From: Desulfobaccales bacterium
GTDB lineage: Bacteria > Desulfobacterota > Desulfobaccia > Desulfobaccales > 0-14-0-80-60-11
Length of the DNA stretch: 64,000 bases
Assembly (NCBI GenBank): GCA_050014275.1
Contig: JBEKDQ010000001.1
Span: forward strand, 648-64,647
Direction: 5' to 3'
Shown here one piece after another: positions 5,976-32,306 of this stretch. The position numbers and the translations under genes were made by a program. The notes under the pieces were generated by a model, which worked only from the letters and a program-made list of their open reading frames with translations, was not told the DNA's origin and made no database searches. Numbering within the stretch: the stretch's first letter is position 1; each line of letters starts with the position of its first letter.

Positions 5976-7136
5976 ATGGATAATCCGGACGACTCCTTGG
6001 AAAAATTTGATATGCCCGAGGTCATCTTCGGCCTGGGCGCCTTGAGCAAGATCGGCCATTGTGCCAAGCGCCTGGGCGGGGAAAAGGTCTTCCTGGTCAC
6101 CGACCCGGGCATCATTGAAGCCGGTTGGGTGGATGAAAGTATCAAATACCTGGAAAAAGAAGACCTGAGATACGTGGTCTACGACAACGTGGTCACCAAC
6201 CCCAGGGATTTCCAGGTGGAGACTGGCGCCCAGCTCTATCTCCAGGAGCAGTGCGACGTCATCGTGGCGGTAGGCGGCGGTAGTGCAATCGACGCGGGCA
6301 AGGGAGTGGCCATCCTGGCTTCCAACTTCGGGAGCATCCATGATTACGAGGGCTGCAATAAAATCACTCACCCCATTCCGCCCATGGTGTGCGCCCCCAG
6401 CACCGCCGGGACCGGGGCCGACATCACCCAGTTTGCCGTGATCACCGACGTTGCCCGGCGGGTGAAGATGACTATCCTTAGCCGGGCCATCATGCCAGAT
6501 ATCTCCGTGATCGACCCGCGTCTCTTGCAGACCAAGCCCCAGGATCTCATCGCCTCCACCGGAGTGGACACCCTGACCCACGCCATAGAGGCTTATGTCT
6601 CGGCGCTCTCCTGGCACCTGACCGACCCGCACGCCATCCACGCCATTGAGCTGGTGATGCAGCATCTGCCCACGGCCGTGAAGTCCAGAAATATGGACGC
6701 CCTGGCCGGCATGTCCATTGCCTGCCTTGAGGCCGGCATCGCCTTTTCCAATGCGATTCTAGGCGCGGTGCATGCCCTGGCCCACCCCCTGGGGGGCTAT
6801 TACGATATGCACCATGGCGTCGCCAACACGGTGCTCCTGCCGGTGGTGACCCGCCGCAACCTGAAACACTCCCCGGACAAATACGCCCGCATTGCCCAGG
6901 CCATGGGGGTGACGGCCAACGGCCAGAGCACCCGGGAGATGGGGCTACAGATTATTGAAAAGATTGAACAATTACTTACAGAGATCGAACTCCCAACCAG
7001 ACTATCCCAACTGGGGGTGAAGCGGGAGGATATTCCCCTGATGGCTGACCTGGCACAGCAGGATGTCTGCCTGTTAACCAACCCCTGCTCATACTCCAAA
7101 GAAGAGATCGAAGCGATTTATCATGAGGCCTGGTAA
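5976..7136 (+). CDS. Iron-containing (type III) alcohol dehydrogenase
   Basis: 386 aa with GGGSAIDAGK, a PSTAGTGADIT-type loop and metal-ligand His motifs (THAIEAY, HALAHPLGG..HHG). Confidence 0.9.
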   Translation: MDNPDDSLEKFDMPEVIFGLGALSKIGHCAKRLGGEKVFLVTDPGIIEAGWVDESIKYLEKEDLRYVVYDNVVTNPRDFQVETGAQLYLQEQCDVIVAVGGGSAIDAGKGVAILASNFGSIHDYEGCNKITHPIPPMVCAPSTAGTGADITQFAVITDVARRVKMTILSRAIMPDISVIDPRLLQTKPQDLIASTGVDTLTHAIEAYVSALSWHLTDPHAIHAIELVMQHLPTAVKSRNMDALAGMSIACLEAGIAFSNAILGAVHALAHPLGGYYDMHHGVANTVLLPVVTRRNLKHSPDKYARIAQAMGVTANGQSTREMGLQIIEKIEQLLTEIELPTRLSQLGVKREDIPLMADLAQQDVCLLTNPCSYSKEEIEAIYHEAW

Positions 7137-7144: not shown

Positions 7145-8344
7145 ATGGGACAAGACCCGAAACTGGCAGCTTATGATTTTAAGGGCCTAGGATATTCCAA
7201 GATCGGTCACTTCAAGGAAGTCCGCGCCAAAATCAAGGAACTGGAAGGTCTAAACCTGGAATTGGCCCGGCGACACCACAAGCTGGCCACCATCATCGAC
7301 AGCATGAGTGACGGCTTGACCATCTTGAACCGAGACCTGGATATAATCTTGGCCAACAAGGTCCAGAAGGCCATGTTCCCGGATATTTCCCTGGAAGGGA
7401 AAAAATGCTACCGCACCTTTTTTCGGAAAGACCATGCCTGCCGCAACTGTCCGGCTCTCAAGACCATGGAAAGGCAAGAAGTACTCTCGGGAGAATTCCT
7501 GATCAAGGAGGGCGAATTCGCCGGCCGCTTCTGTGAATGGACTACCTCCCCCTTGCGGGGCGCCTCCGGGCAGGTGGAGCAAGTGTTGCTGCTCATGAGG
7601 GATGTCACGGAGCGTAAAGAATACGAATTCAAGCTGATGCAGACCGATCGGATGGCGGCCATCGGCCTCTTGGCCGATGGCATCGCCCACGAAATCAATA
7701 ATCCCCTGACCTCTATTGCAGGTTTTTCCGAGGCGCTGCTCAAAAGGCTCGGAAATAATTCGCTGCCGGGAGAGAAGAAGCCGAAACTCCTCCTGGAGTA
7801 CTTGGATATTATTAATAAAGAGGCCCATCGCTGTAAGGAAATAGTCCGGCAGTTGCACGACTTTAACCGTAAGCCCACGCATGGACGGGAAGTGCTCGAT
7901 GTCGGCCAGATCATTAATGCCACGGTGTCCCTGATCCGGACCCATGCCAAACATAACAATACCAAGATCAAGGTGAAGAATAGCCTGGCCACCGGGTTCG
8001 ACCGGGTTGAAGGCAATGAGGCCCAGATGAAACACGCCTTCCTCAACCTGATCCATTTTCTGCTCGGCGTCATGCCGGACGGTGGCGAATTGACGATCAC
8101 GGCCAGGAATTCCGGGAACCTGATTGAGGTCATCCTGTCGGCCAGCGGAGGTCGACTCCCGGCTCACTGGCACGAGAATGCCATGCATTCCCCCTATAGC
8201 TGGGACCTGGCTGGCGGAGAGACGCCGGTGAATCTTTCCATCTGTTACAGCATCATTCGGCACCACAGCGGCACCCTGCGGCTGGATATCCGGGAGCAGG
8301 AAGAGCCCTCTCTGGTGGTACGGTTTCCCTCGTTTGTGCCATGA
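7145..8344 (+). CDS. PAS-domain sensor histidine kinase
   Basis: 399 aa, soluble. Has a PAS region carrying Cys residues (CYRTFFRKDHACRNCP), an H-box (IAHEINNPLTSI) and a C-terminal HATPase-like region. Confidence 0.85.
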   Translation: MGQDPKLAAYDFKGLGYSKIGHFKEVRAKIKELEGLNLELARRHHKLATIIDSMSDGLTILNRDLDIILANKVQKAMFPDISLEGKKCYRTFFRKDHACRNCPALKTMERQEVLSGEFLIKEGEFAGRFCEWTTSPLRGASGQVEQVLLLMRDVTERKEYEFKLMQTDRMAAIGLLADGIAHEINNPLTSIAGFSEALLKRLGNNSLPGEKKPKLLLEYLDIINKEAHRCKEIVRQLHDFNRKPTHGREVLDVGQIINATVSLIRTHAKHNNTKIKVKNSLATGFDRVEGNEAQMKHAFLNLIHFLLGVMPDGGELTITARNSGNLIEVILSASGGRLPAHWHENAMHSPYSWDLAGGETPVNLSICYSIIRHHSGTLRLDIREQEEPSLVVRFPSFVP

Positions 8345-8431: not shown

Positions 8432-9763
8432 ATGTCCCAGGGAAGGATTCTGGCCATTGATGATGAACAGAACATCAGGACCCTCATCGCCAATGAATTC
8501 TCCTTGGAAGGCTTCGGCGTCACCACCGCCAAAAGCGGCGAGGAGGGCCTGAAGTTTTGTGATAAAGAGAAGTTTGACGTCGTCCTCCTGGACATCCGGC
8601 TGCCCAAGATGAACGGCATCGAGGTGCTCCGGCGCCTAAAGGAGAAGACGCCGGATGCCAGGGTCATCATGATCACGGCCTACGGCGACATCAAAACCGC
8701 CGTGGAATCCATGAAACTGGGGGCCCAGGATTACGTCACCAAGCCTTTCAAACTCGGCGAACTCCTGGGTCTAGTAAAACAGGCCTTGGGCGGTGGCCAG
8801 AGCGGCGGCGATGCCAAAACCTCCGAGTCTGCCCTGGCGGCCGGCGGGGCCCCGGGCTTTATCCGCTGTCCCAACCGGGCGATGCAAGACCTCTATGACC
8901 TGGTGGCCAAGGTGGCCCCTACGGATAAGACCATCTTAATCCAGGGGGAAACCGGCGTAGGCAAGGATGTGGTGGCTCAACAGATTCACGCCCTGAGCCG
9001 GCGCAAGGACGGCCCTTTCATTATCGTGGATTGCGGCATCCTCAACCAAAACCTGGCGGAAAGTGAGCTTTATGGCCATACCAAAGGCGCCTTCTCCGGG
9101 GCCTGGGAAAAGAGGTCCGGCCTGGTGGAGCAGAGCCATGGCGGTACCCTGTTCCTGGACGAAATCGGCAACATCGAATTGGAATTGCAGAAAAAATTCC
9201 TGCGCTTCCTGGAGACCAAGAAGTTTCGCCGCCTGGGAGAAACCCGGGAGGTCGAAATCGACACCCGGATCATCCTGGCCACCCACCTGGACCTGCAGGA
9301 AGCGGTGGCCCGGGGGACTATGCGCAAGGACTTGTTTTACCGCATTGACGTGATTCTCATTCCTATTCCACCTCTAAGAAAACGGCCGGAAGACGTGCCT
9401 CCACTGGCCCGCCATTTCCTCAGTCTGGAGCAGAGTATCGTTGGCGCCAAGAAGATCTCAGCCGAAGCCATGCGGATCATGACCGAGTATGCCTGGCCGG
9501 GAAACGTTAGGGAACTCCGGAGCGTGATCAACAAGGCGGTGATTTTTGCCCGGACCGATACCATTACGCCCAACGATCTGCCCTCTGAGCTCAGGAGAAA
9601 TGTGCCGGTTTCCCCGCAGAAGACCCTGGAGGACTTGGAGAAGAATTATATCCTCACGGTCCTGGAGAGAACAGGAGGCAATCAGAGCGAGGCCGCCAAG
9701 ATCCTGGGGATTAACCGCAAGACCCTTTATAAAAAGATTCATAAGTTTAAGATACTTAATTGA
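8432..9763 (+). CDS. Sigma-54-dependent response regulator (NtrC family enhancer-binding protein)
   Basis: 443 aa. Receiver domain (DDEQNIR..., DVVLLDIRLPKMNG), AAA+ core (GETGVGKD, GAFSGA (GAFTGA-type motif), LFLDEIG) and a C-terminal Fis-type HTH. Confidence 0.9.
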   Translation: MSQGRILAIDDEQNIRTLIANEFSLEGFGVTTAKSGEEGLKFCDKEKFDVVLLDIRLPKMNGIEVLRRLKEKTPDARVIMITAYGDIKTAVESMKLGAQDYVTKPFKLGELLGLVKQALGGGQSGGDAKTSESALAAGGAPGFIRCPNRAMQDLYDLVAKVAPTDKTILIQGETGVGKDVVAQQIHALSRRKDGPFIIVDCGILNQNLAESELYGHTKGAFSGAWEKRSGLVEQSHGGTLFLDEIGNIELELQKKFLRFLETKKFRRLGETREVEIDTRIILATHLDLQEAVARGTMRKDLFYRIDVILIPIPPLRKRPEDVPPLARHFLSLEQSIVGAKKISAEAMRIMTEYAWPGNVRELRSVINKAVIFARTDTITPNDLPSELRRNVPVSPQKTLEDLEKNYILTVLERTGGNQSEAAKILGINRKTLYKKIHKFKILN

Positions 9764-10024: not shown

Positions 10025-10040
10025 AGGCACGCGGTTTGCT
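10025..10040 (+). promoter_or_regulatory. Candidate sigma-54 promoter ~590 nt upstream of the mycofactocin-type cluster
   Basis: AGGCACGCGGTTTGCT has GG (10026-27) and GC (10038-39) 12 nt apart, a near-consensus GGCACG-N4-TTGC. The long distance to the first CDS lowers confidence. Confidence 0.4.
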
Positions 10041-10617
10041 TATATGTGCTTTGCCCGCCGATCTAGTCATTTGAGATTCGCCATGGAAGCATTAAGGTTC
10101 ACCCAGAGCCAGATCGGAGAAATGCCTCAGAAACGAAATCCCCAAATGAAAGGGGGCGGTCCAAGAACGTCATCCTGGGCACCTTGGCAGAAGATTCCCA
10201 TAGAAAGTAAGGGCTTGTTTTAGGACTAAAGCAAACCAGGCACCAAGGGGGCGAGCCTGGTCTCGCTTCCATTTGTGCATATGAGCCGTACCACTTTCTC
10301 CTTTCGGCCCTCCGGGAGGAGGGCAAAACAAATTATTTCCCCCCTAAACTCCTCCTAGGAAGAGGGCCCCCCCATCCCTCTCCAAGGAGAACCTAGGCGT
10401 CAGTAGGGGGGATAGGTATTCTTCCCAACATCGGGGTGGCCGATACGGGGCGCACCTTACCCTGCAAGCCTGGAGGAAAAGGCCCGGCTGGTTGTCCCGG
10501 AGCAGAGATTAGCGCAATACGGCGCCACAGATATGCGGGAACTCCTGCAGAAAGTTACTAAAGATTAACCTTCGCAACTCTAAGCGATAATTCCGTGAAT
10601 CAGAAAGGAGTGAGGGG

Positions 10618-11427
10618 ATGAAGCTGGAAGGCAAAGTAGCCATCATAACCGGCGGGGCACGCGGCAACGGCTTTGCTGCGGCTAAGCTGATGGCCCAGGA
10701 AGGCGCGGATATCGTCATTGCCGACATCTGCGAAGATATCGCCACGGTTCCCTATCCTCTGTCCACCCCAGAGGGCATGGCGAACTCGGTCAACGAGATC
10801 AAAAAGCTGGGGCGGAAGGCCATGGGCATCAAGTGCGACGTGCGCAAGGCAGCCGATGTCCAGGCCATGGTGCAGCAGGTGCTGGACAGCTTCGGCAAGA
10901 TCGACATCCTGGTGAACAACGCCGGCACGGCCACCCTGGAGGCGGTGGTGGACATGAGCGAGGAATCCTGGGACGACATGATCGACGTCCACCTGAAAGG
11001 CACCTTCCTGTGCAGCAAATACGTGGTGCCTCAGATGATCGACGCCCACAGCGGTAAGGTGGTCAACATCAGCTCGGTGGGCGGCACCCGGGGTTTCGGG
11101 ATGGGCAGCCATTACTGCGCCGCCAAGCACGGCATCATCGGCTTTACCAAATCCCTGGCCATGGAGACCGCCGACCACAACATCAACGTCAACGCGGTGT
11201 GCCCAGGCACGGTCTGGACCGACATGATGCAGGGCCTGGCTAACTATTTCGGCATGGAAACCGCCGACGCCAAGGAGAACTTCTTCTCGGGCCATCTCTT
11301 CAAGGACCGGGAGATCACTCCGGACGATATTGGCCAGGCCGTGCTCTGGTTGGTCACCGAGGACACCAAGTGCATCACCGGCGGGATCATCATGGTGGAC
11401 GCCGGCTGGACTTGCCGGGCACCGTAA
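10618..11427 (+). CDS. Mycofactocin-coupled SDR-family oxidoreductase
   Basis: 269 aa. Has TGGARGNG, and the characteristic insert after the second strand (IADICEDIATVPYPLSTPEGMANSVNEIKKLGRK) seen in the mycofactocin-associated SDR subfamily. YxxxK is present as YCAAK. It lies immediately upstream of mftA. Confidence 0.8.
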   Translation: MKLEGKVAIITGGARGNGFAAAKLMAQEGADIVIADICEDIATVPYPLSTPEGMANSVNEIKKLGRKAMGIKCDVRKAADVQAMVQQVLDSFGKIDILVNNAGTATLEAVVDMSEESWDDMIDVHLKGTFLCSKYVVPQMIDAHSGKVVNISSVGGTRGFGMGSHYCAAKHGIIGFTKSLAMETADHNINVNAVCPGTVWTDMMQGLANYFGMETADAKENFFSGHLFKDREITPDDIGQAVLWLVTEDTKCITGGIIMVDAGWTCRAP

Positions 11428-11512
11428 GCGCCGGTGCAACCCTGGCGGTAAGGATTGAGGCGGGCGCCCGCGCCCCCTTGAGCACTAATCTAAATAACTG
11501 GAGGAATGACAG

Positions 11513-11638
11513 ATGGACGATGTGACCAGACGCGAAGAACAACCCCTGGAAGCCCAAGCCGAGGAGCTGGTCCCCTGCATCCTGGAAGAAGTCTGCATCG
11601 AAGAGATGGCGGTGGACGGAATCTGTGGCATCTACTAA
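11513..11638 (+). CDS. mftA: Mycofactocin precursor peptide MftA (variant C-terminus ...VDGICGIY)
   Basis: Hand-translated 41-aa ORF that falls below the ORF-track cutoff: MDDVTRREEQPLEAQAEELVPCILEEVCIEEMAVDGICGIY then stop. An acidic leader plus a C-terminal xDGxCGxY matches the canonical MftA ending IDGMCGVY. GGAGGA RBS lies upstream. Confidence 0.8.
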   Translation: MDDVTRREEQPLEAQAEELVPCILEEVCIEEMAVDGICGIY

Positions 11639-11708
11639 AAGCCGGCCTGGTTTCCGGTCCGGATGTGGCCGGGAACCAGGCGAAATTCAAGGCAACGGGG
11701 GAAGCGCC

Positions 11709-11990
11709 ATGAGCCCGGGAAAGGTCTATTGTCTCAAGGAGGGGGTCCAGGTGCGCCCGGAGGTCTTTGGGCTGCTCTTTTACGATTACCGGGGTCCCAA
11801 ACTCTACTTCGTGCCTTCCCGTGACCTCATCAACATTTCTTTTTTTGCCGGACGGCAAACCGAGCAGGAACTGATTGAAACCATTGCCACCGCTCATCCC
11901 TGGTCCCGTCGCGATATTCAGGACCGGGTGCGGCAAATTCTGGAGATGCTCGAGACGAAGGGATTGGTCCATGGGCAATCGTTATCTTGA
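11709..11990 (+). CDS. mftB: Mycofactocin biosynthesis chaperone MftB (PqqD/RRE family)
   Basis: ~93 aa from the internal ATG (MSPGKVYCLKEGVQVRPEVFGLLFYDYRGPKLYFV...). Typical MftB N-terminal pattern and position between mftA and mftC. Confidence 0.8.
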   Translation: MSPGKVYCLKEGVQVRPEVFGLLFYDYRGPKLYFVPSRDLINISFFAGRQTEQELIETIATAHPWSRRDIQDRVRQILEMLETKGLVHGQSLS

Positions 11991-13038
11991 CCTGGGGTTA
12001 TCCGCCCCGGTAAACGTCACCTGGGAAGTGACTTACAACTGCAACCTCTCGTGCATCCACTGCCTGTCGGACTCGAGCCGGCAGGGGCACCTGGGGCTGA
12101 GCACCCAGGAGTGCCTGGGGGTGATCGATATCCTGGCGGACCAGAAGGTCTTCCAGTTGAGCATCGGCGGCGGCGAGCCCTTCACCCGTCCGGATTTTTT
12201 GGATATCGTGGACCATGCCCACCAAAAGGGTATCGTCACCTGCATCAGCACCAATGGCACCCTGATCACCGAAGAGATAGCCCGGCGGCTGGATCACCGA
12301 CTGGTCTATGTCCAGGTGAGCCTGGACGGCGCCACCACCGAGTCCAATGACGCCATCCGGGGCCGGGGCAGCTTCCGCAAGGCGGTGCGAGCCCTGGAAC
12401 TCTTAGGCCAGACGAACATCGGTCTGAGCCTCAACACCGTGCTCACCCGTCTCAGTTTCCCGGAGTTGGACCGCCTCTCCGACCTGGCGGCCAGCGTCGG
12501 GGCCCGCCTCAGGGTCTCGCGCTTCCGGCCATCGGGCCGGGGCAAGCGCTCCTGGGACGACCTGAATCTTTCCAAGGAGCAGATGGTCGGCTTCTCGGAG
12601 TGGCTGAACCGGCACCTGGAAGTCTCCACCGGCGACTCCTTCTTCTCGGTGTCCTCGGAAGACCGCCGCTCCCTGGGGCTTAACATGTGTGGGGCGTGTA
12701 AGCTCACCTGCTGTATCTCCCCACTGGGAGAGATTTATCCCTGCGCCTTCTTGCAGGAGCCGGAATTTCTGGCCGGTAAGCTGCTGGAGGATAATTTCGC
12801 TCACATCTGGGAGCACTCGCTGGTCTTTGGCTCTTTTCGCGAATTAGAGATCAAATCCTGCGAGCGCTGCCAGCGCTTTAATCTGTGCCACGGCGGCTGC
12901 CCGGCCGTGGCTTATCATACGCAACGCCGCTTGGGCCTGCCGGACCCCGAGTGCCTGGTCAATTGCATCACCGTTAATTCTTTGACACCCGGGAGGGCCG
13001 ATGACCAACGCGATACCCCGAGGGCGGTTCTCCCTTAG
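11971..13038 (+). CDS. mftC: Mycofactocin radical SAM/SPASM maturase MftC
   Basis: ~355 aa from MGNRYLDLG... Has the CNLSCIHC radical SAM motif, then GGGEPF, VSLDGATTESNDAIRGRGSF, RVSRFRPSGRG, TGDSFF, GLNMCGA and SPASM cysteines (CERCQRFNLCHGGC, PDPEC). Overlaps mftB by 20 nt. Confidence 0.9.
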   Translation: MGNRYLDLGLSAPVNVTWEVTYNCNLSCIHCLSDSSRQGHLGLSTQECLGVIDILADQKVFQLSIGGGEPFTRPDFLDIVDHAHQKGIVTCISTNGTLITEEIARRLDHRLVYVQVSLDGATTESNDAIRGRGSFRKAVRALELLGQTNIGLSLNTVLTRLSFPELDRLSDLAASVGARLRVSRFRPSGRGKRSWDDLNLSKEQMVGFSEWLNRHLEVSTGDSFFSVSSEDRRSLGLNMCGACKLTCCISPLGEIYPCAFLQEPEFLAGKLLEDNFAHIWEHSLVFGSFRELEIKSCERCQRFNLCHGGCPAVAYHTQRRLGLPDPECLVNCITVNSLTPGRADDQRDTPRAVLP

Positions 13039-14530
13039 ACCGGGCCTCAGGCTGATCCCAGGGGAGGCGGGAGGGGTCCTCCTCCAGCCCGCACCGCTAC
13101 GCCTCCTTCGTGTCAACTCCGCAGCATTTGCGCTCCTTCAGAGATGTCAGGCAGGCTTCTTTTTAGAGAATAACGCCAGCCAGCCCGCGGGCCAACCGGA
13201 GAGGTCCATGTTCGCCTTTCTCGATGCCCTCTGGCAATCCGGTTTGCTGGACTGGCAGCCGGCCCTGGATACCTGCGCCCCGGCGGTCAGTATCGTCCTG
13301 CCGGTATATAACCGGGCCGGGGAGATCGGCAGATGCCTCGAGGCGCTGCTGGCCCTCAATTACCCCGGAGCGCGGCGGGAGATCATCGTGGTAGACGATG
13401 GCTCCACAGACGGCACCCCGGACGTGGTGAGAAATTGTCCGGTCAGGCTCCTCGTTCAGCCCCAAAACCTCGGGCAATCCGCAGCCCGCAATGCCGGGGT
13501 GCGGGCCGCCGGGGGCGATATCATTGCCTTTATCGATAGCGACTGCATCGCCGACCGGGACTGGCTTCGGGAGCTGTTGCCCTATTTTCAGGATTCCCGG
13601 GTAGCCCTGGTGGGCGGCTACGTAGATTCCTTCTTCCGGGAGACCAGGCTGGACCGCTTTGAGGAGGTCCAGTCTCCTCTGAACATGGGCCAGGGGTTGG
13701 CCTTCGGCACCACTGCTGAGTCGGACTTTTACGTGCCCACCTGCAATGTCCTGATCCGGAAAGAAGCCTACCTGGAGGTGGGGGGGCTGGATGAGGGGCT
13801 GCGTCTGGGCGAAGATGTGGACCTGTGTTGGCGGCTCAAGGAAAAGGGCCATCGTCTTCTTTACGTGCCCCGGGGCAAGGTGAGACACAAGCATCGCAAC
13901 CGCCTCCGGGAAATCCTGGCCCGGCGTTTCGACTATGGCACCTCCGAGGCCTTTCTCTTCAGCCGGCATGAGCAGGTGAAAAAACGCTTCCCCTGGAAAC
14001 CCACGGCCCTGGGTGTCTTCTTCTTAGGTTGTCTGGCGCTGCTGACGGGGTTCTGGCTGCTTCTCCCCCTGGCGGCGTTGTTGACGGCGACCGAGGCCTG
14101 GCGCCGCCAGCGGCAGGTGCAGATGAAGGCCGGGATGGCCCTGGGCTACCTCGCGGTCCTGAGGGCGATTCTCAGGGATTATTTCGCCACAGGGTTTTAT
14201 CTCACTTACCACTTGCTCCGCTATTATTTACTGCCTATTTTAATAATAGCCCTAATTTTTCCGGCCGCGGCGCCGCTAGCGGCGGTGCTTATCCTCTTTC
14301 CGGCGACGGTAGAGTTCGCCCGAAAGAAGCCGCGGCTGTCCCTGCCGCTGTTTCTCTGCCTCTATCTGGCGGAGCAGGCCTGCTATCAGGCCGGGGTATT
14401 CTGGGGTTGTCTCATTTGGAAAAATTTTCGTCCATATCATCTGTTGTTCTTCCGGTCTCAGAGAAATTCTGGGGCAGAGAGAGGTACACCGAATCTTAAC
14501 TTTGAGGAGACCATATGCCGAAATTCTTAA
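13001..14530 (+). CDS. mftF: Mycofactocin-system glycosyltransferase MftF (GT2 with N-terminal extension and C-terminal TM helices)
   Basis: 509 aa. N-terminal RFSLRPGLRLIPGEAGGVLLQPAPLRLLRVNSAAF segment, a GT2 core (VSIVLPVYNR, VVDDGSTDGT, FIDSDC, GEDVDLCWR), and hydrophobic helices at the C-terminus. Confidence 0.75.
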   Translation: MTNAIPRGRFSLRPGLRLIPGEAGGVLLQPAPLRLLRVNSAAFALLQRCQAGFFLENNASQPAGQPERSMFAFLDALWQSGLLDWQPALDTCAPAVSIVLPVYNRAGEIGRCLEALLALNYPGARREIIVVDDGSTDGTPDVVRNCPVRLLVQPQNLGQSAARNAGVRAAGGDIIAFIDSDCIADRDWLRELLPYFQDSRVALVGGYVDSFFRETRLDRFEEVQSPLNMGQGLAFGTTAESDFYVPTCNVLIRKEAYLEVGGLDEGLRLGEDVDLCWRLKEKGHRLLYVPRGKVRHKHRNRLREILARRFDYGTSEAFLFSRHEQVKKRFPWKPTALGVFFLGCLALLTGFWLLLPLAALLTATEAWRRQRQVQMKAGMALGYLAVLRAILRDYFATGFYLTYHLLRYYLLPILIIALIFPAAAPLAAVLILFPATVEFARKKPRLSLPLFLCLYLAEQACYQAGVFWGCLIWKNFRPYHLLFFRSQRNSGAERGTPNLNFEETICRNS

Positions 14531-14787
14531 TTGAACGAGAGATTCCCAAGGCCGGTCAGCTTTCCCCCGCGGACCTGCAGGCCATCTCCCAGAAATCCTG
14601 CCAGGTTCTTCGGGAACTCGGTCCGCAAATCCAGTGGCTGCAGAGCTACGTGACCCCAGACAAGATTTACTGCGTATATCTGGCGCCCAACGAGGACATA
14701 ATCAGGGAACATGCCAAGCGGGGCGGCTTTCCCGCCAACCGTATTTCTGAAATCAAAAAGGTGATTGATCCTACGACAGCCGAATAG
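14515..14787 (+). CDS. DUF4242-family small protein (family reported to include a Ni-binding ferredoxin-fold protein)
   Basis: 90 aa, MPKFLIEREIPKAGQLSPADL...YCVYLAPNEDIIREHAKRGGFPANRISEIK, which matches the DUF4242 pattern as I remember it. Overlaps the mftF end by 16 nt. Confidence 0.55.
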   Translation: MPKFLIEREIPKAGQLSPADLQAISQKSCQVLRELGPQIQWLQSYVTPDKIYCVYLAPNEDIIREHAKRGGFPANRISEIKKVIDPTTAE

Positions 14788-14813
14788 GACAATCCCGAAA
14801 CAAGCCGGCCCTC

Positions 14814-15647
14814 ATGACGAAAGATTTGACCAACAAATATCATCGTCTGCGTACAATTCTCCAGGACCTGGGGAGCGTGGCAGTGGCCTACTCCGGCGGG
14901 GTGGACAGCACCCTGCTCCTCAAGGTGGCCCAGGAGGTCCTGGGGGAGCGGATACTGGCCATTACCGCCGACTCCGAGACCACCCCCCAGCAGGAGCGGA
15001 AAGATGCGGCCCTCCTGGCCCGAGAACTGGGGGTGGAGCACCTGGTGGTGGCCGGCCGGGAACTGGAGCTGCAGGAGTTTCTCCGGAACCCCACCGACAA
15101 GTGTTATATCTGCAAAAAGGCTCGTTTCAGCGAGCTGGTGAAAATGGCCCGGGAGCGCGGCCTCAATGCGGTGGTGGACGGCGGCAACTTGGACGACCAG
15201 GCAGACTTCCGTCCCGGCATGCGGGCCGTTGAGGAACTGGGGATCAGGAGCCCTCTGGCGGAAGCCGGCCTTACCAAGGCGGAGATCCGCCTCCTCTCCA
15301 AGAGGCTGAAGCTCCCCACCTGGAAAAAGCCGGCCTACGCCTGCCTGGCCTCCCGTATCCCGTACCATCACGAAATCACGGTGGAGAAGCTGCGGCAGAT
15401 CGATGCCGCCGAAGAGCTAATCCGGAAAAGGGGCCTGGCGACCCAGGTGCGGGTCCGGCATTATGGCGACACGGCCCGCATCGAGGTAGAACCCGTAAGC
15501 ATCCACAGGCTGGCCGCCAAGATGGTGCGCTCGGACCTAATCAAAGAGCTTAAGACCCTGGGCTTCAAGTTCGTCACCCTGGACCTGGAGGGGTACCGTA
15601 CCGGGAGTCTGAACCCGGCTGAGGTTAAAACCAAAACAGAAAGTTAA
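14814..15647 (+). CDS. larE: ATP-dependent sacrificial sulfur transferase LarE
   Basis: 277 aa. PP-loop motif AYSGGVDST, a conserved Cys region (DKCYICKK), and overall LarE-like length and order next to larB and larC. Confidence 0.85.
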   Translation: MTKDLTNKYHRLRTILQDLGSVAVAYSGGVDSTLLLKVAQEVLGERILAITADSETTPQQERKDAALLARELGVEHLVVAGRELELQEFLRNPTDKCYICKKARFSELVKMARERGLNAVVDGGNLDDQADFRPGMRAVEELGIRSPLAEAGLTKAEIRLLSKRLKLPTWKKPAYACLASRIPYHHEITVEKLRQIDAAEELIRKRGLATQVRVRHYGDTARIEVEPVSIHRLAAKMVRSDLIKELKTLGFKFVTLDLEGYRTGSLNPAEVKTKTES

Positions 15648-15730
15648 TGGTCCCCTTAGAAAATCCGCTGGCCGCCCCATGGGGCGCCATCAACCCTACG
15701 GCCAAGGGCCTGTTTAAAGGAAGGTAAAGC

Positions 15731-16567
15731 ATGGAAAATGAATTCTTAAGAGACCTGCTGAAGCAGGTCGCCAGCGGCCAGATGAATCTGGACGCCGCCA
15801 TGCACGCATTGCGCAAGCTCCCCTTTGAGGACCTGGGCTACGCCCGGATAGACTTCCATCGTTGCCTGCGGAACGGGGTGCCGGAGGTCATTTATTGTGC
15901 CGGGAAGACCCTGTCGCAGATCCAGGGCATTGCCCAGAAGCTCGCCCATCACCATGTTAACGTCCTGGCTACCAGGGCCAGCCAGGAGGTGTTTGAGGGC
16001 GTCCGGGAAGTGGTCCCCGACTGCGAGTACCACGAAGCGGCCCGCATCATCGTGCTAAAGCCCCGGCCGTTGGAAGGATCGGGGCTCATCGCCGTGGTGA
16101 GCGCCGGCACCTCGGATATTCCCGTGGCCGAAGAGGCCGCCATCACCGCCGAAGTCCTGGGCAATAAAGTTACGCGCCTCTATGACGTGGGGGTGGCGGG
16201 AATCCACCGGCTGCTGAACCACTGTGACGACCTATTCCGGGCCAACGTGGCGGTGGTGGTAGCCGGCATGGAAGGCGCTCTGGCCAGCGTGGTGGGTGGC
16301 CTGGTCTCCTGCCCGGTAATCGGGTTGCCCACCAGCGTGGGTTACGGCGCCAGCTTCGGGGGCATCGCCGCCCTGCTCAGCATGCTGAACAGCTGCGCCT
16401 CGGGGGTCTCCGTGGTCAACATCGATAATGGCTTTGGGGCCGGCTTCCAAGCCAACCTCATCAACAAGATCGCGGCCAAGGCCGCCTCGGACACGGACAT
16501 TGCGAGGCCTGAGATGCAGGAAAAGCCCGCCGACCTACACCTGAAAAGGGCCTCCTGCTGTTCTTGA
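15731..16567 (+). CDS. larB: Nickel-pincer cofactor biosynthesis protein LarB (NaAD carboxylase/hydrolase, PurE-like)
   Basis: 278 aa. N-terminal LarB-specific segment (…LDAAMHALRKLPFEDLGYARIDFHRCLRNGVPEVIYCAGKT) followed by a PurE-like fold (VVSAGTSDIPVAEEA). Confidence 0.85.
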   Translation: MENEFLRDLLKQVASGQMNLDAAMHALRKLPFEDLGYARIDFHRCLRNGVPEVIYCAGKTLSQIQGIAQKLAHHHVNVLATRASQEVFEGVREVVPDCEYHEAARIIVLKPRPLEGSGLIAVVSAGTSDIPVAEEAAITAEVLGNKVTRLYDVGVAGIHRLLNHCDDLFRANVAVVVAGMEGALASVVGGLVSCPVIGLPTSVGYGASFGGIAALLSMLNSCASGVSVVNIDNGFGAGFQANLINKIAAKAASDTDIARPEMQEKPADLHLKRASCCS

Positions 16568-16602
16568 CGTTTTGGATATGGATTGGATATGGAGATGACT
16601 CA

Positions 16603-17925
16603 ATGAAAATCGCTTATTTCGATTGCTTCTCCGGGGCCAGCGGCGACATGATTCTGGGCGCCCTGGTGGACGCCGGCCTAAGTCTGGAGCATCTCACCGG
16701 GGAATTGGCCAAGTTGAACCTCTCCCATTATCATATTGCCGCCAAGAAGGTGGTAAAACAAGGGCTGGGCGGAACCCAGATGCTCATCGATCTAGAAAGG
16801 GACCGGCACTTCGAGGTCGGGCACCACCATGAGGAAGGGTTTCACAACCATCATCACAATCATCATCATGGGCGCCATCAAGATCATCATCACGACCACC
16901 ACTCGCACCGCGGCCACGAATGCCAGCGCCCGCCTCGCCATGAGCACCGGAATTTCCATGACATCAAAAATCTCATTGAGGCCAGCCCCCTCGACGAGGC
17001 GGTGAAGCACCAGAGTCTCCAGATCTTTACCCGTCTGGCCGAAGCTGAGGCGCAGGTGCACCGCACCAGTATCGAACAGATCCACTTCCACGAAGTGGGG
17101 GCGTTGGATTCCATCATCGACGTGGTGGGGGCGGCCATCGGCTTCCAGGCCCTGGGGATTGAGAAGATTTACTGTTCCCCCCTGGAGGTGGGCAGCGGCA
17201 CGGTGGTGTGCGCCCACGGCACCTTGCCGGTGCCGGCCCCGGCCACTCTGGAACTCATCAAAGGCAAGCCCGTCTATTCCAGCGGGGTGCAGGGAGAGCT
17301 GCTGACGCCCACCGGGGCCGCCATTCTCACCACCCTGGCCGCGGCCTTCGGCGCCATGCCGGCCATGACCGTGGAGGCCAGCGGTTACGGCGCCGGCACC
17401 CTGGATACGCCCGGTCCCAATCTCCTGCGGGTCTCCATCGGCGAAGCCGCCGAGACGGCGCAGGGCTTCCAGGTGGAGCGGGCGGCGGTCATTGAAACCA
17501 ATATTGACGACATGAATCCCCAGCTCTATGATTATCTTATCCAGAAGATGCTGGATATGGGCGCCCTGGATGTCTTCCTGGCGCCCATCCAGATGAAGAA
17601 GAATCGCCCCGGCACCCTGGTCTCGGTCATCTGCCAGGTGGAGGCGGTGGAAAAATTTGCCGAGTTTTTGCTCCAGGAGACCACTACCATCGGACTCAGG
17701 TGGCGGGTGGACCACCGCCTCAAGGCCGACAGGTCGATGCGGACGGTGGAGACCAGGTATGGGCCGGTGCGCTTTAAGGTGGCGCACCTGGGCGATCAGA
17801 CCGTCAATATTTCCCCGGAGTACGAGGACTGCAAACGCCTCGCTCTGGAAAAGAGCCTGGCCCTTAGAGACGTCATGGAAGAAGCCGGTTCGATGGCTGT
17901 GAAACTGAAACATGGCAATGGCTGA
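16603..17925 (+). CDS. larC: Nickel insertion protein LarC (DUF111) with internal His-rich tract
   Basis: Begins MKIAYFDCFSGASGDMILGALVDAGL, the LarC signature. The His-rich region HHHEEGFHNHHHNHHHGRHQDHHHDHHSHRGHE is encoded at ~16,820-16,920. Length ~440 aa. Confidence 0.85.
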   Translation: MKIAYFDCFSGASGDMILGALVDAGLSLEHLTGELAKLNLSHYHIAAKKVVKQGLGGTQMLIDLERDRHFEVGHHHEEGFHNHHHNHHHGRHQDHHHDHHSHRGHECQRPPRHEHRNFHDIKNLIEASPLDEAVKHQSLQIFTRLAEAEAQVHRTSIEQIHFHEVGALDSIIDVVGAAIGFQALGIEKIYCSPLEVGSGTVVCAHGTLPVPAPATLELIKGKPVYSSGVQGELLTPTGAAILTTLAAAFGAMPAMTVEASGYGAGTLDTPGPNLLRVSIGEAAETAQGFQVERAAVIETNIDDMNPQLYDYLIQKMLDMGALDVFLAPIQMKKNRPGTLVSVICQVEAVEKFAEFLLQETTTIGLRWRVDHRLKADRSMRTVETRYGPVRFKVAHLGDQTVNISPEYEDCKRLALEKSLALRDVMEEAGSMAVKLKHGNG

Positions 17926-18020
17926 GGGGAAGGATTTCCACCTTAGAACGTAATAAAGCTCAACTAATTTTCGAGCGGTGGGCGCTTCCACCGAAAATTC
18001 CACCAGTGAAGGAGCAGGCT

Positions 18021-19757
18021 ATGGAAAAGATTCTCAGAATTGACATGGGCGCAGAGGGCGGCCCCAAGGTCTCCGAGGTTCCGGTGGGGGAATACGCCGG
18101 TCTGGGCGGCCGGGCCATGACTTCCAGCATCGTGGGCAAAGAGGTGCCCCCCCTCTGCCATCCCCTGGGTGGCGAGAACAAACTGGTGATCGCCCCGGGG
18201 CTATTGAGCGGCACGGCCGCCGTTTCTTCCGGCCGCATCTCGGTGGGCTGCAAGAGCCCTTTGACCGGAACCATCAAGGAGTCCAACGCCGGGGGGCAAG
18301 CGGCGCAGGTCCTGGCTCGTTTGGGCTACGCCGGCATTGTCCTGGAGGGCAAGCCAAAAACGGACGACCTCTACAAGGTGTTCATCAACAAAGATGGAGT
18401 CACGATCACCGTGGACAACAGCTTAAAGCTGCTGCCCAATTATGACCTTATTGACCGGATGAAAAAGGAGCATGGAGAAAAGATCGCCTGTATCTCCATC
18501 GGCCCTTGCGGCGAGATGAAGATGGCGGCATCTTCAGTGGCCTTCACCGACATGGAGCTCAGGCCGTCCCGCCATGCAGGCCGTGGAGGGGTCGGAGCCG
18601 TTATGGGCGCCAAGCAAGTTAAAGTCATTGTGCTTGATGGAACGGGCACGAAGATGCGAACCCCCAAGAATCCGGAAAAATTCAACGATGCCAATAAGCG
18701 GTTTACGGAAGGGCTCAAGGGCCATCCGGTCACCGGGCAGGCGCTGCCCGCCTACGGCACGAATGTATTGACTAACATCCTCAATGAAGCAGGAGGGTAT
18801 CCTACTTACAACTTCGCGGAGGGGCGCTTTCAAGGGGCTCATCAGATCAGCGGTGAGACGCAGACAGAAATAATGGAATCCAGGGGCGGGTTGACCTCCC
18901 ATAGCTGCCACACTGGCTGCGCCATCCGCTGCTCGGGCACCTATCACGATAAAGACGGCCATTACGTGACTAAACAACCCGAATACGAAACTGTCTGGGC
19001 GCACGGGGGCAATTGTGGCATCTGTGATATGGATGCCATTGCCAATCTTGATTTCCTGGATGACAACTTCGGGCTGGACACCATTGAAACGGGGGTTACG
19101 GTGGGCGTGGCCATGGAAGCCGGCCTGCTCAAATTCGGAGATTCCGAAGGGGCCATCAATCTGGTGAAAGAAATAGGCAAAGGCACCTACCTGGGCCGCA
19201 TCCTGGGGGCCGGCGCCGAAGTCACCGGCAAAATCTTTGGCGTGGAGCGGGTTCCGGTGGTCAAAGGCCAGGCCATGCCCGCCTATGATCCTCGAGCAGT
19301 GCAGGGCATCGGCGTCACCTACGCCACCAGCACCATGGGGGCCGACCATACGGCCGGCTACGCCGTGGCCACCAATATCCTCAAAGTGGGGGGCGACGTC
19401 GATCCCCTTTCGCCCAAAGGCCAGGTGGAACTGTCCCGGAATCTGCAAATCGCCACGGCGGCGGTTGATGCCACCGGCATGTGCCTGTTCATCGCCTTCG
19501 CCGTCCTGGACCAGCCGGAGACCTTTCAGGCCTTGATCGATTTGATCAATGCCTTCTATGGCGGCAACCTGGATGCCAATGGCGTGATGGAATTGGGCAA
19601 AACCATCCTGAAGATCGAAAAGGAGTTCAATACCCAGGCCGGCTTCACCAAGGCCCACGACCGGCTGCCGCGGTTCTTCAAGAACGTGCCCCTGCCCCCG
19701 CATAACGTCGTCTTCCAGGTGACGGATGCGGAGCTGGATGAGGTGTACAACTTCTAA
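18021..19757 (+). CDS. Tungsten-containing aldehyde:ferredoxin oxidoreductase family protein (AOR copy 1)
   Basis: ~578 aa from the ATG preceded by AAGGAG (the ORF track starts at GTG 18006). AOR N-terminal domain (ILRIDMG..., GLGGRAMTS), and pterin/FeS region motifs (…GADHTAGY, CLF…). Confidence 0.9.
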   Translation: MEKILRIDMGAEGGPKVSEVPVGEYAGLGGRAMTSSIVGKEVPPLCHPLGGENKLVIAPGLLSGTAAVSSGRISVGCKSPLTGTIKESNAGGQAAQVLARLGYAGIVLEGKPKTDDLYKVFINKDGVTITVDNSLKLLPNYDLIDRMKKEHGEKIACISIGPCGEMKMAASSVAFTDMELRPSRHAGRGGVGAVMGAKQVKVIVLDGTGTKMRTPKNPEKFNDANKRFTEGLKGHPVTGQALPAYGTNVLTNILNEAGGYPTYNFAEGRFQGAHQISGETQTEIMESRGGLTSHSCHTGCAIRCSGTYHDKDGHYVTKQPEYETVWAHGGNCGICDMDAIANLDFLDDNFGLDTIETGVTVGVAMEAGLLKFGDSEGAINLVKEIGKGTYLGRILGAGAEVTGKIFGVERVPVVKGQAMPAYDPRAVQGIGVTYATSTMGADHTAGYAVATNILKVGGDVDPLSPKGQVELSRNLQIATAAVDATGMCLFIAFAVLDQPETFQALIDLINAFYGGNLDANGVMELGKTILKIEKEFNTQAGFTKAHDRLPRFFKNVPLPPHNVVFQVTDAELDEVYNF

Positions 19758-19782
19758 GTAGTTAAACTCACTGCCTGACCCG

Positions 19783-19808
19783 AGGTGGGGCCGGCCCTGG
19801 CCCCACCT
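19783..19808 (+). terminator. Putative intrinsic terminator after AOR copy 1
   Basis: Perfect 10-bp GC-rich stem AGGTGGGGCC / GGCCCCACCT with a 6-nt loop, followed by the T-rich TCTTTCCCCTTT. Confidence 0.5.
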
Positions 19809-19885
19809 TCTTTCCCCTTTACAACCCCTTCATATTCTTTATAATAAAAGATAGGGACGCCCTTGGAACTGCAGGAATTCATTAC

Positions 19886-20524
19886 ATGTCTAACCGAGTG
19901 ACGAGGGATACCCCCAAACCTGACGCTGCCGTTCTCTCCTTTAGCCTATCGCAGGCTCATCTGCCGCGCCTTTTCCCTCTCTTGCAGCAAGGTTTTTTGG
20001 TCAGGGTTCCGGGGGGCTGCAATATCAGAACCATCCTTTGCCAGCATCTCGGCTTTACGCCGGACTATCTGGAAAACCGGATCCAGACCATCTTTCTCAA
20101 CGGCAAAGCGGTGGACGAAGTGGATGCGACCATCGTGGGCGAGGGCGCCACCCTGGCCCTGTCCACCGCCATGCCGGGGCTGGTGGGGGCGACCATGCGG
20201 AAGGGCGGCTATTATGCGGGCTTGCGCGGCGCCATCACTCACCGGGAGGCCAAACGAGCCACACCGGAGGCGAACTGCCTGGTGAGGCTTAAGCTTTTCA
20301 ACCTCTTGACCGGGGAAGTGGGGCCCCTTTTCCTGGAGAAGGGCATCTGTTTCGAGAGCGCCGTTCTTGAAGACTTTTTCAGAACCCGGCCGGAGGATTT
20401 CTGGTCGGGATTTCTGGCTGTGTCCCTGAACGGCAAGGAACTGGACCTCACGGCTTTGGCCGCCGGGCCCTGGCCCGGCGTGCCGGACCTTATCTGTCTG
20501 AAAGTTCTGGTCGGACCTGACTGA
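19886..20524 (+). CDS. Hypothetical protein (no recognisable family)
   Basis: 212-aa ORF with codon usage consistent with its neighbours. I recognise no motifs. Confidence 0.45.
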   Translation: MSNRVTRDTPKPDAAVLSFSLSQAHLPRLFPLLQQGFLVRVPGGCNIRTILCQHLGFTPDYLENRIQTIFLNGKAVDEVDATIVGEGATLALSTAMPGLVGATMRKGGYYAGLRGAITHREAKRATPEANCLVRLKLFNLLTGEVGPLFLEKGICFESAVLEDFFRTRPEDFWSGFLAVSLNGKELDLTALAAGPWPGVPDLICLKVLVGPD

Positions 20525-20557
20525 GAGGGAAAAATTTCACGGCAAGGAAGGCGGCTC

Positions 20558-21718
20558 ATGTTCAAGGCGGCTACCGTCACCCTGAAAAACAGGTTTTCCC
20601 GGGATATGGGACGGCGCCTGGGCAAGGCCCTGGTGGAGAAGCTCGGAGATTTCCCCCAGGCCTGCTGGCTCTTCTGTTCTCCCCAAACCGGCCAGCGGGA
20701 GTTGCTCAAGGGCATCGTCAGCGCCGTTCGCACTCACACCCTGGTGGGTTGCACCACCGACGGCGAGATCTCTTCCGAGGGCTTCAGCACCGGCTCGGCG
20801 GTGCTGGGGGGCATTGCCAGCGATCAGATCGACTTCCAGGTCGCCTGTGCCACCAATCTGGGCCAGGATTCCGAAAAAGCGGGGCAAGAACTGGCCAGGG
20901 CTTTCTCCCCGGGAACCAGTTATTTGCAGCTCTTCTCGGATGGCCTCACCGGCAATGGCTGCGCCCTCTTGCGGGGCATGGCGGGGGTCCTGGGCCGGCA
21001 GACGCCCATCGCCGGCGGCACGGCGGGAGATGGCGGGGAGTTCGTCCGCACCCGGCAGTACATCGGGGATCAGGTGCTGACTGATGCCGCGGTGGCCATC
21101 GGCTTGTCCGGTAACTTCCAGGTGGGCACCGGGGTCCGTAGCGGCTGGTCTCCCCTGGGTATCGCCAAGCGGGTGACCCGGGCCTCGGGCAATGTGCTTT
21201 ATGAATTGGGTGGCCAGCCGGCCCTGGAGGTCTATGAGCGCTTCCTGGGAAAACATGCCGAGAGATTACCGGCGGTGGGCGTGGAGTACCCCATGGGTCT
21301 GGTGGACGACAGCGGCTATTGCGGCGGTGGCGAATATCATCTCTTGCGCGCCACCATGTCGGTCAATCGCGAGGACGGCTCCATCTCCTTCGCCGGTGAG
21401 ATCCCGGAGGGGGCCATGGTCCGGATGACTTGTGGCGATACCGACGCCATCCTGGAGGCCACTGGCCGGGCCGTAGAATTGGCCCAGGAGGACCTGGGGG
21501 GGCGGTCCCCGGTCATGGCCTTTTTTTATTCCTGCATGGCCCGGAGAATTGTCCTGGGTCGGCGCACCAAAGAAGAAATAGAGCACATCCGCCAGAAAGT
21601 GGGCCGAGAAATCCCCATCCTGGGATTTTACACCTATGGGGAGTACTGCCGCGTCAGCCCCGGCGGCCCCAGCTTTCTCCACAACGAAACGGCCACGGTG
21701 TCGCTCATCGGAATTTGA
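20558..21718 (+). CDS. FIST-domain signal-transduction protein
   Basis: 386 aa. Layout and sequence resemble FIST_N/FIST_C proteins (…GCTTDGEIS…, …FYTYGEY…). AGGAAGG RBS present. The stop is separated by 3 nt from the start of the following hybrid kinase. Confidence 0.65.
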   Translation: MFKAATVTLKNRFSRDMGRRLGKALVEKLGDFPQACWLFCSPQTGQRELLKGIVSAVRTHTLVGCTTDGEISSEGFSTGSAVLGGIASDQIDFQVACATNLGQDSEKAGQELARAFSPGTSYLQLFSDGLTGNGCALLRGMAGVLGRQTPIAGGTAGDGGEFVRTRQYIGDQVLTDAAVAIGLSGNFQVGTGVRSGWSPLGIAKRVTRASGNVLYELGGQPALEVYERFLGKHAERLPAVGVEYPMGLVDDSGYCGGGEYHLLRATMSVNREDGSISFAGEIPEGAMVRMTCGDTDAILEATGRAVELAQEDLGGRSPVMAFFYSCMARRIVLGRRTKEEIEHIRQKVGREIPILGFYTYGEYCRVSPGGPSFLHNETATVSLIGI

Positions 21719-21721
21719 GAT

Positions 21722-32297: not shown

Positions 32298-32306
32298 GAG
32301 TCCGGT

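Follow-up and report, generated by a model that had tools for sequence, protein, structure and literature searches.

Mycofactocin, a peptide-derived cofactor associated with alcohol metabolism, has been studied almost only in aerobic actinobacteria. In these, MftD forms the redox centre in an aerobic step, and electrons reach the respiratory chain through MftG. The pyrroloquinoline quinone (PQQ) ethanol-oxidation regulon of Pseudomonas, with its ErcA and ErcS regulators and the proteins PqqA, PqqD and PqqE, is likewise built around a cofactor of peptide origin. The locus described here bears on how strict anaerobes make and recycle a mycofactocin-like cofactor, and on what replaces MftG in genomes that lack it. 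We analysed 64,000 nucleotides (nt) of a Desulfobaccales bacterium (assembly GCA_050014275.1, contig JBEKDQ010000001.1, positions 648 to 64,647), hereafter the window, which carries a mycofactocin-type gene set at 10618-14530. The set probably represents a complete variant-type system, and it is nested among genes for nickel-pincer nucleotide (NPN) synthesis, DUF362 proteins and an aldehyde:ferredoxin oxidoreductase (AOR).

Among mycofactocin-positive complete genomes, D, E and R are not universal, and the radical SAM protein, the glycosyltransferase and the peptide are said always to co-occur; the non-actinobacterial hosts named are Geobacter, Pelotomaculum and Desulfotomaculum (Haft 2011, PMC3023750). 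Compared by description, the clusters of Geobacter uraniireducens, Pelotomaculum and Desulfotomaculum acetoxidans from that work resemble the window locus in their anaerobic hosts, in an iron-containing alcohol dehydrogenase (Fe-ADH) beside the cluster and in the non-universality of D, E and R. The bare pattern of “no D, E or R” is already documented. MftG is missing from 25% of genomes with MftC, and what replaces it has been described as an open question (PMC11778925). In M. smegmatis, an mftD knockout abolishes mycofactocin, an mftF knockout loses most mycofactocin species, and an mftE knockout still yields mycofactocin via an unidentified peptidase (PMC7491314). The MftD step has been described as aerobic (PMC8406134). 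For the variant-type mycofactocin system recognised by database curators, we found no describing paper in the searchable literature. Apparently undescribed, too, are the lack of D, E and G throughout the lineage and the nesting of the variant mft genes in a LarBCE/DUF362/AOR regulon under sigma-54 control.

A variant-type mycofactocin core

Five genes make up the core of the locus, and were assigned by NCBIfam profile scores (bits) against curated cutoffs:

10618-11427, + strand: short-chain dehydrogenase/reductase (SDR), mycofactocin-coupled subfamily 3 (NF040490, 510.4 against a cutoff of 385)
11513-11638, + strand: MftA, variant-type precursor of 41 amino acids (aa), C-terminus EEMAVDGICGIY (NF040489, 48.7 against 30)
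11706-11990, + strand: MftB, PqqD-like chaperone with a RiPP (ribosomally synthesised and post-translationally modified peptide) recognition element (TIGR03967, 52 against 33)
11968-13038, + strand: MftC, radical SAM/SPASM maturase (TIGR03962, 365 against 265)
13001-14530, + strand: MftF, GT2 glycosyltransferase with a membrane C-terminus (TIGR03965, 392.3 against 280)

A preliminary description, made from the letters of the window, had reported these genes as contiguous with overlaps between mftB and mftC and between mftC and mftF. Both statements hold: all five lie on the + strand, each above its cutoff. The mftB reading frame is open from a GTG at 11625, with the ATG at 11706 as the likely start, and that of mftC is open from 11875, with a likely ATG start at 11968; with these starts the overlaps are 23 nt (mftB/mftC) and 38 nt (mftC/mftF). 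A different radical SAM RiPP system, which the same description had raised in case MftB, MftC or MftF should score poorly, found no support, as all three exceed their trusted cutoffs. The second-best radical SAM family reached 159 bits on the window MftC, which is 42-46% identical to the annotated MftC proteins of Thermomicrobium, Streptomyces and Haloterrigena.

The precursor and the dehydrogenase set this locus apart from the canonical type. MftA matched NF040489 alone; the canonical precursor model TIGR03969 gave no match to it. Its tail reads VDGICGIY, where annotated canonical precursors end in IDGMCGVY or IDGICGVY, and the DG-x-CG-x-Y core motif is otherwise kept in variant precursors. 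The SDR scored 288.7 against TIGR03971 (subfamily 1), under the cutoff of 300. With NF040489 and NF040490 both above cutoff, the locus is, by family profile, a member of the curators’ “variant-type” mycofactocin set.

Measured against the canonical system (Mycobacterium mftA-F, mftR, mftG and mftM; TIGR03962-03969), the window shares the short precursor, MftB, MftC and MftF above equivalog cutoffs, a dedicated adjacent SDR of mycofactocin type and an association with alcohol metabolism. It differs in having Ile-Tyr rather than Val-Tyr in the precursor, in lacking MftD, MftE, MftR, MftG and MftM, in its strictly anaerobic host, and in the placement of the genes among lar, DUF362 and AOR genes. 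Its lineage differs further in that MftF is optional and that sigma-54 two-component control stands in place of the TetR regulator MftR.

Gene order is conserved in a widespread sediment lineage

A scan of genome contigs with the window MftC gave four relevant loci. The closest relative is a Desulfobaccales metagenome-assembled genome (MAG), contig JBAVAG010000070.1, with a 97% identical MftC and the same gene order; Desulfobacterales MAGs were also found. A metagenome scan added 80 further loci with MftC proteins 67-84% identical to that of the window, and a protein search returned 4,515 MftC relatives at E ≤ 1e-40, the best 120 of which are 70-97% identical. Among the latter are Desulfonema limicola (complete genome, CP061799.1), Syntrophobacter sp. 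SbD1, Desulfatitalea and Desulfococcaceae. The locus belongs to a lineage widespread in sediments. Across 75 related MftA proteins, 72 end in GIY and 3 in GVY, with the consensus EE[LM]AVDGICGIY.

The common gene order forms one supercluster under sigma-54 control. It begins with the Fe-ADH, a sensor kinase and a sigma-54 regulator, followed by DUF362a, DUF362b, an Mrp-like ATPase and two small proteins; it then runs SDR, MftA, MftB, MftC, (MftF), LarE, LarB, LarC, AOR, a 210-aa protein, a FIST sensor and a hybrid kinase. Where at least 5 kb of downstream sequence was available (24 loci), LarB and LarC were each present in 22, LarE in 21, AOR in 20 and MftF in 15. Upstream, with at least 6.5 kb available (31 loci), SDR was found in 29, DUF362a and Mrp in 28 each and the sigma-54 regulator in 26. 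The SDR adjoins mftA in 49 of the 54 loci that extend far enough upstream. In dozens of Desulfobacterota loci, the mft genes are flanked by the DUF362 module on one side and by LarE on the other.

The gene after MftC, evaluable in 58 loci, is MftF in 30, and LarE or LarB follows directly in 26; no MftF was found at the Desulfonema limicola locus. With MftF following MftC in only 30 of 58 loci, SDR-MftABC plus LarEBC emerges as the conserved core of this lineage, to which MftF is an optional addition.

Genes mftD, mftE, mftR, mftG and mftM were not found in the window or in related loci

The preliminary description had noted no MftE, no MftD and no TetR regulator in the 64 kb, and two kinds of search agree. 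A Pfam scan of the 46 other long open reading frames (ORFs) of the window found no FMN_dh (PF01070), Creatininase (PF02633) or TetR_N domain. Six-frame tblastn of the window was run with annotated MftD (three), MftE (two), MftR, MftG and MftM queries, which are encoded in clusters on plasmids of Mycolicibacterium, Thermomicrobium, Tsukamurella and Haloterrigena; the best E value was 0.09, and 0.10 for MftE. The comparison with mft clusters of other anaerobes that had been proposed in the same description gave the same picture, with D, E and R likewise missing from 87 related loci: relaxed tblastn (E ≤ 0.05) returned zero matches for MftD, MftE, MftR, MftG or MftM in the 826,565 nt of these loci plus the window. 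Nor were domains of the D, E, R, G or M type present in the Pfam-annotated ±10 kb contexts of Desulfonema limicola, a 175-kb Joint Genome Institute contig and Syntrophobacter sp. SbD1. The regulator adjoining the mft genes is of the sigma-54 type, in place of a TetR MftR.

These results bear on whether ordinary mftD and mftE genes, and perhaps mftR, lie elsewhere in the genome and complete a canonical pathway. The visible DNA is 64 kb of the genome, and partial dispersal is known, since mftD occurs without mftE nearby in Thermomicrobium roseum and mftE without mftD nearby in Haloterrigena. Against such a split cluster, neither the 826 kb of related loci and window nor the three further annotated contexts held a match; D, E and R are also missing from some mycofactocin-positive complete genomes (PMC3023750), and the aerobic MftD step (PMC8406134) is at odds with an anaerobe’s genome bearing heterodisulfide reductase (Hdr), AOR and sigma-54 systems. 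We regard a split cluster as very unlikely.

The knockout phenotypes put the missing genes in perspective. The loss of mftE is no strong anomaly, because M. smegmatis still makes mycofactocin without it. With mftE dispensable and mftD essential, formation of the keto-amide is therefore the critical missing function, and the aerobic MftD step would make that enzyme ill-suited to a strict anaerobe.

A second alternative takes the missing redox-centre enzyme at face value: the product would not be a mycofactocin-type redox shuttle at all, but a peptide-bound species or a non-redox amine (an AHDP analogue), which might have a signalling or ligand function, or might act on the neighbouring DUF362, AOR or SDR proteins as their prosthetic group or in their maturation. 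It would fit the fact that no known alpha-keto-amide-forming enzyme was found in the window or the related loci, the presence of Ile in place of Val at the modified position of the precursor, and the lack of MftF at nearly half of the loci, which departs from the M. smegmatis mftF knockout phenotype (PMC7491314). Three features speak for a redox role all the same: the SDR family is curated as mycofactocin-coupled and its gene is almost always adjacent, as expected of a redox partner; the scores of MftB and MftC place them at equivalog level with their canonical counterparts; and the DG-x-CG-x-Y core motif is otherwise conserved. A product without redox function thus appears improbable.

The preliminary description had offered three possibilities, namely D and E encoded elsewhere, substitution by other enzymes, or a product that stays peptide-bound or differs from mycofactocin. 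All three were reasonable; they are not equally likely, as tblastn of the related loci disfavours the first, and substituting enzymes and/or a modified product are better supported. We put the probability at roughly 0.6 that mftD, mftE, mftR and mftG are absent by design in this lineage, and that the locus is a complete variant-type system rather than a fragment of a split cluster. The best reading is that an oxygen-independent enzyme replaces MftD and/or MftG.

Some cluster variation was seen among the reference sequences themselves. The canonical-type cluster on the Thermomicrobium roseum megaplasmid has mftD and no mftE within the stretch, while that on Haloterrigena turkmenica pHTUR01 has mftE and no mftD nearby, with electron-transfer flavoprotein/FAD oxidoreductase genes adjoining mftF. 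An LCM-type methyltransferase in the window (2530-3447) was considered as an MftM analogue and rejected, having no similarity to MftM and no conservation in related loci.

Nickel-pincer synthesis genes lie in the same operon-like run

Downstream of mftF, the + strand continues with the following genes:

14515-14787, + strand: SCO4226-like nickel-responsive small protein (PF14026, 101 bits)
14814-15647, + strand: LarE, sulfur transferase of NPN synthesis (TIGR00268, 322.8 against a cutoff of 150)
15731-16567, + strand: LarB, nicotinic acid adenine dinucleotide carboxylase/hydrolase of NPN synthesis (NF033503, 299.7 against 175)
16564-17925, + strand: LarC, nickel-inserting cyclometallase with a His-rich region (TIGR00299, 230.8 against 90; NF052512, 153.4 against 50)
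18006-19757, + strand: AOR family protein, tungsten-type (Pfam AFOR_N, AFOR_C)
19886-20524, + strand: conserved 212-aa protein with no assigned family, whose position after AOR is kept in relatives
20558-23704, + strand: FIST-domain sensor, then hybrid PAS histidine kinase/receiver (Pfam FIST, FIST_C, PAS, HATPase_c, Response_reg)

The run from 10618 to 23704 is tightly spaced: between the SDR gene and the hybrid kinase, no intergenic gap exceeds 128 nt. SDR-mftA-B-C-F is the front of one operon-like run that continues through the nickel-responsive protein, LarEBC, AOR and the sensors. LarEBC (14814-17925) and the DUF362 module (44181-48962) went unmentioned in the preliminary description; the LarEBC/DUF362/AOR linkage is the most informative feature of the locus. 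The conserved nesting of mft and lar genes suggests that two rare cofactors work together.

LarB, LarC and LarE above cutoff are shared with the LarA/LarBCE system, as are, in the candidate DUF362a, a LarA-like modelled fold and a putative equivalent of the Lys/His pair that tethers the cofactor and binds nickel in LarA. The window differs in having no LarA: a Pfam scan gave no match to the LarA domain (DUF2088/Lar_N, PF09861) anywhere in the 64 kb. It differs also in the 8-Cys insert of DUF362a, a putative binder of the cofactor, and in having a degenerate paralogue of it and the Mrp-like ATPase.

The 212-aa protein at 19886-20524, considered as a possible peptidase, had no Pfam or NCBIfam match. 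By eye, it contains two “...LNGK..D” tandem repeats that recall MoaD/ThiS-like beta-grasp domains.

DUF362a resembles LarA in predicted structure

A further module lies 30 kb from the mft genes in the window; in most relatives it is directly upstream of the SDR-mft genes. It comprises:

44181-45707, + strand: DUF362a, LarA-like, with an 8-Cys ferredoxin-like insert (PF04015; AlphaFold2 and Foldseek)
45796-46770, + strand: DUF362b, a degenerate DUF362a paralogue (PF04015) with no Lys/His pair and no Fe-S insert
46751-47785, + strand: Mrp/ApbC/NUBPL-type P-loop ATPase (PF10609; NF041136 MrpORP 286.8, under the cutoff of 450)
47923-48264, + strand: small protein of 113 aa, by eye like a 108-aa Desulfonema limicola protein in the same position
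48567-48962, + strand: small protein of ~120 aa with tblastn matches in related loci

DUF362 (PF04015) and the LarA N-terminal domain belong to the same Pfam clan, CL0471 (PMC11770544). When DUF362a and DUF362b were compared with PDB sequences, by sequence and by profile, only the ferredoxin-like insert was matched, so the relationship to LarA emerged only with a structure model. The AlphaFold2 model of DUF362a had a predicted local distance difference test score (pLDDT) of 89, and in a Foldseek search of the PDB its top 19 matches were all LarA-family proteins (E 1e-6 to 7e-3). Template-modelling (TM) scores were only ~0.3, as expected because DUF362a is a two-domain protein with an insert.

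In LarA, His174 is catalytic, Lys184 tethers the cofactor and His200 is a nickel ligand (PMC7583248). An hhalign alignment of DUF362a residues 191-237 to the segment of a LarA homologue that binds the cofactor (E 0.005, probability 7%) places H211, K221 and H237 of DUF362a opposite LarA H174, K184 and H200. The spacings of the three residues (10 + 16) are identical to those in LarA, and none of the three varies among 47 homologues, the most distant of them at 32% identity. DUF362b matched the DUF362a profile with 99.4% probability and has Leu at the positions of K221 and H237. The 8-Cys ferredoxin-like insert of DUF362a suggests net electron transfer rather than racemisation. The C-terminal tail of the Mrp-like ATPase is His-rich (HDHHNHHHHQNHHQGDECCGHLH) and resembles the tails of nickel chaperones, which hints at metal delivery beyond Fe-S delivery alone.

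NPN cofactors are now known in non-LarA enzymes that were found via lar-gene neighbourhoods (PMC13524815), and DUF362 goes unmentioned in that survey. Non-LarA users are only starting to be found, and we nominate DUF362a as a new candidate nickel-pincer enzyme family.

The small proteins are less informative. The 113-aa protein at 47923-48264 had no family match, and tblastn at E ≤ 1e-5 did not pair it with the 108-aa D. limicola protein. The ~120-aa protein at 48567-48962 had no NCBIfam match; tblastn found it in 12 loci, and in 28 when its 120-aa D. limicola counterpart was the query.

Two architectures of the module were seen. Loci with a ~450-aa DUF362a and a ~370-aa Fer4-bearing DUF362b always have MftF; those with a ~500-aa DUF362a and a ~310-aa DUF362b mostly lack it. 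The window is of the second type yet has MftF. In Pelotomaculum thermopropionicum SI (AP009389.1), the genes run Fe-ADH, GAF kinase, sigma-54 regulator, DUF362a, DUF362b, Mrp, an extended SDR/epimerase, two small proteins, LarB and LarC; ThiS, MoaA, MOSC, MobB and ThiF genes follow LarC, and there are no mft genes within 10 kb.

Putative alcohol-sensing genes and a sigma-54 promoter-like element

Upstream of the core are genes likely to control it:

5976-7136, + strand: ErcA-like Fe-ADH (Pfam Fe-ADH, ADH_Fe_C; NF041833 ErcA 478.6, under the cutoff of 550)
7145-8344, + strand: PAS/HisKA sensor histidine kinase (Pfam PAS_4, HisKA), position kept in related loci
8432-9763, + strand: NtrC-type sigma-54-dependent response regulator (Pfam Response_reg, Sigma54_activat, HTH_8)
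10026-10039, + strand: sigma-54 promoter-like element GGCACgcggtTTGC (-24/-12), between the sigma-54 activator gene and the SDR gene

The triad of Fe-ADH, kinase and regulator is kept upstream of the system in many loci. The exact sigma-54 pattern has only two matches in the whole window, one of them at 10026-10039. In 19 of 26 loci, the intergenic region that separates the regulator gene from the following operon carries the same pattern, which has 37 matches overall in the 826 kb. The arrangement parallels the Pseudomonas PQQ regulon in the peptide-derived cofactor, the PqqE-like radical SAM protein, the PqqD-like chaperone and the ErcA-like Fe-ADH beside a kinase; the window differs in cofactor chemistry, dehydrogenase families, sigma-54 control and its anaerobic setting.

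The preliminary description had listed three dehydrogenases as candidate clients of the cofactor. The SDR at 10618-11427 kept that place through its NF040490 score and is, on family profiles, the only supported client in the window. The zinc-containing alcohol dehydrogenase (49196-50218, - strand) was rejected as a mycofactocin client, scoring 110.5 against the TIGR03989 cutoff of 440. The Fe-ADH at 5976-7136 is nearest the ErcA-like regulatory type, under cutoff, and probably either works with the adjacent kinase in sensing or regulation or serves as a client dehydrogenase.

A leader of ~580 nt (10040-10617) separates the promoter-like site from the SDR start, and is 91% identical in the relative whose MftC is 97% identical. 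An Rfam scan of the whole window found no RNA family, so no riboswitch accounts for it. In other loci the promoter sits ~200-360 nt upstream of DUF362a, and because of this the leader may be the scar of a rearrangement.

A proposed anaerobic pathway and a possible place for DUF362a

We propose that an alcohol or aldehyde signal would switch on the regulon, whereupon MftB and MftC would process the C-terminal Ile-Tyr of MftA as they do Val-Tyr in mycobacteria. By this analogy the product is probably an Ile-derived mycofactocin analogue, passing through a 4-ethyl-4-methyl analogue of the AHDP lactam that would be 14 Da heavier. A housekeeping peptidase could release this core, as the M. smegmatis mftE knockout would suggest, and an oxygen-independent enzyme other than MftD would form the redox-active alpha-keto amide. 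MftF, where present, would then glycosylate the cofactor, which would reoxidise the tightly bound NADH of the subfamily-3 SDR.

LarA-type nickel-pincer enzymes act on alpha-hydroxy carbonyl compounds by hydride abstraction at the alpha carbon. Because this is the reaction needed on mycofactocinol and, by analogy, on the AHDP amine, DUF362a with its Fe-S insert is the most economical candidate. With a nickel-pincer cofactor supplied by LarEBC, it would be the leading candidate for keto-amide formation and/or MftG-type re-oxidation, although we consider it rather unlikely that DUF362a in fact fills the MftD and/or MftG role. The fuller proposal is that DUF362a, with DUF362b and Mrp, constitutes a new class of NPN enzyme with Fe-S clusters and net oxidative activity, which in Desulfobacterota would convert the alpha-amine of the MftC-derived lactam to the keto amide and/or re-oxidise the reduced cofactor; we hold this, too, to be rather unlikely. 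If it were true, anaerobic alcohol oxidation would run through a single electron-transfer chain made up of two rare cofactors, mycofactocin and the nickel-pincer nucleotide, with electrons delivered to ferredoxin-level carriers. The locus thereby offers concrete candidates, LarA-like Fe-S proteins and NPN synthesis genes within the same operon, for the making and recycling of the cofactor in strict anaerobes.

Several points weigh against this pathway or parts of it. The D and E searches cover the window and the related loci, which leaves a small chance of a distant copy elsewhere in the genome. The product structures of all GIY-type systems are predictions by analogy. Equivalents of LarA R75 and H108 were not identified in DUF362a in our own reading of the alignment, and the hhalign match to the single LarA sequence is weak at the E value and probability given above. 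The DUF362 module is 30 kb from the mft genes in the window, Pelotomaculum thermopropionicum and a Thermococci archaeon have a DUF362a-b-Mrp-Lar module, complete with the two small proteins, that has no mft genes close by, and DUF362a adjoins AOR in an Atabeyarchaeum genome and another metagenome contig; its primary role may concern AOR/aldehyde metabolism rather than mycofactocin.

The last three observations are also what would be expected if the linkage were one of co-regulation only, with LarEBC serving the DUF362 proteins alongside AOR/aldehyde metabolism, the mft genes having no biochemical link to NPN, and unrelated enzymes elsewhere taking the MftD and MftG roles. This explanation agrees with the one we prefer on what the system is and on D and E being absent; only the link between DUF362a and the nickel-pincer cofactor is in dispute. 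Since the DUF362-Lar module occurs without mft, the lar genes belong first with DUF362a, and variant mft genes were inserted into the module in Desulfobacterota. Co-regulation alone does not readily explain why, in dozens of Desulfobacterota loci with MftC proteins only 67-75% identical, the mft genes occupy the very same position after the DUF362 module and before LarE, or why the mft genes of the window stay with the lar genes although the DUF362 module has moved; Pelotomaculum, moreover, is itself mycofactocin-positive (PMC3023750). We see it as a possibility to be taken seriously, if not the favoured one, and even then the locus would be a compact regulon for anaerobic alcohol and aldehyde oxidation.

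Other genes in the window

Pterin-cofactor (tungsten or molybdenum) genes cluster with the system. A MoaA gene (23707-24765, - strand) follows the main operon, and the stretch at 39868-43244, just upstream of the DUF362 module, encodes a second AOR together with its 4Fe-4S partner and a ThiF/MoeB-like adenylyltransferase.

A heterodisulfide-reductase-type cluster at 29773-39824 encodes a molybdopterin oxidoreductase, an HdrB-like CCG protein, a 1122-aa HdrA-like fusion, MvhD/FlpD and hydrogenase-like subunits; electrons released by the alcohol-oxidation regulon could pass to this cluster. An 879-aa ORF at 52504-55143 holds two complete tandem malic-enzyme units (malic and Malic_M domains, twice), and a KdpA-KdpB-KdpC potassium-transport ATPase operon, unrelated to the mft genes, occupies 58259-62713.

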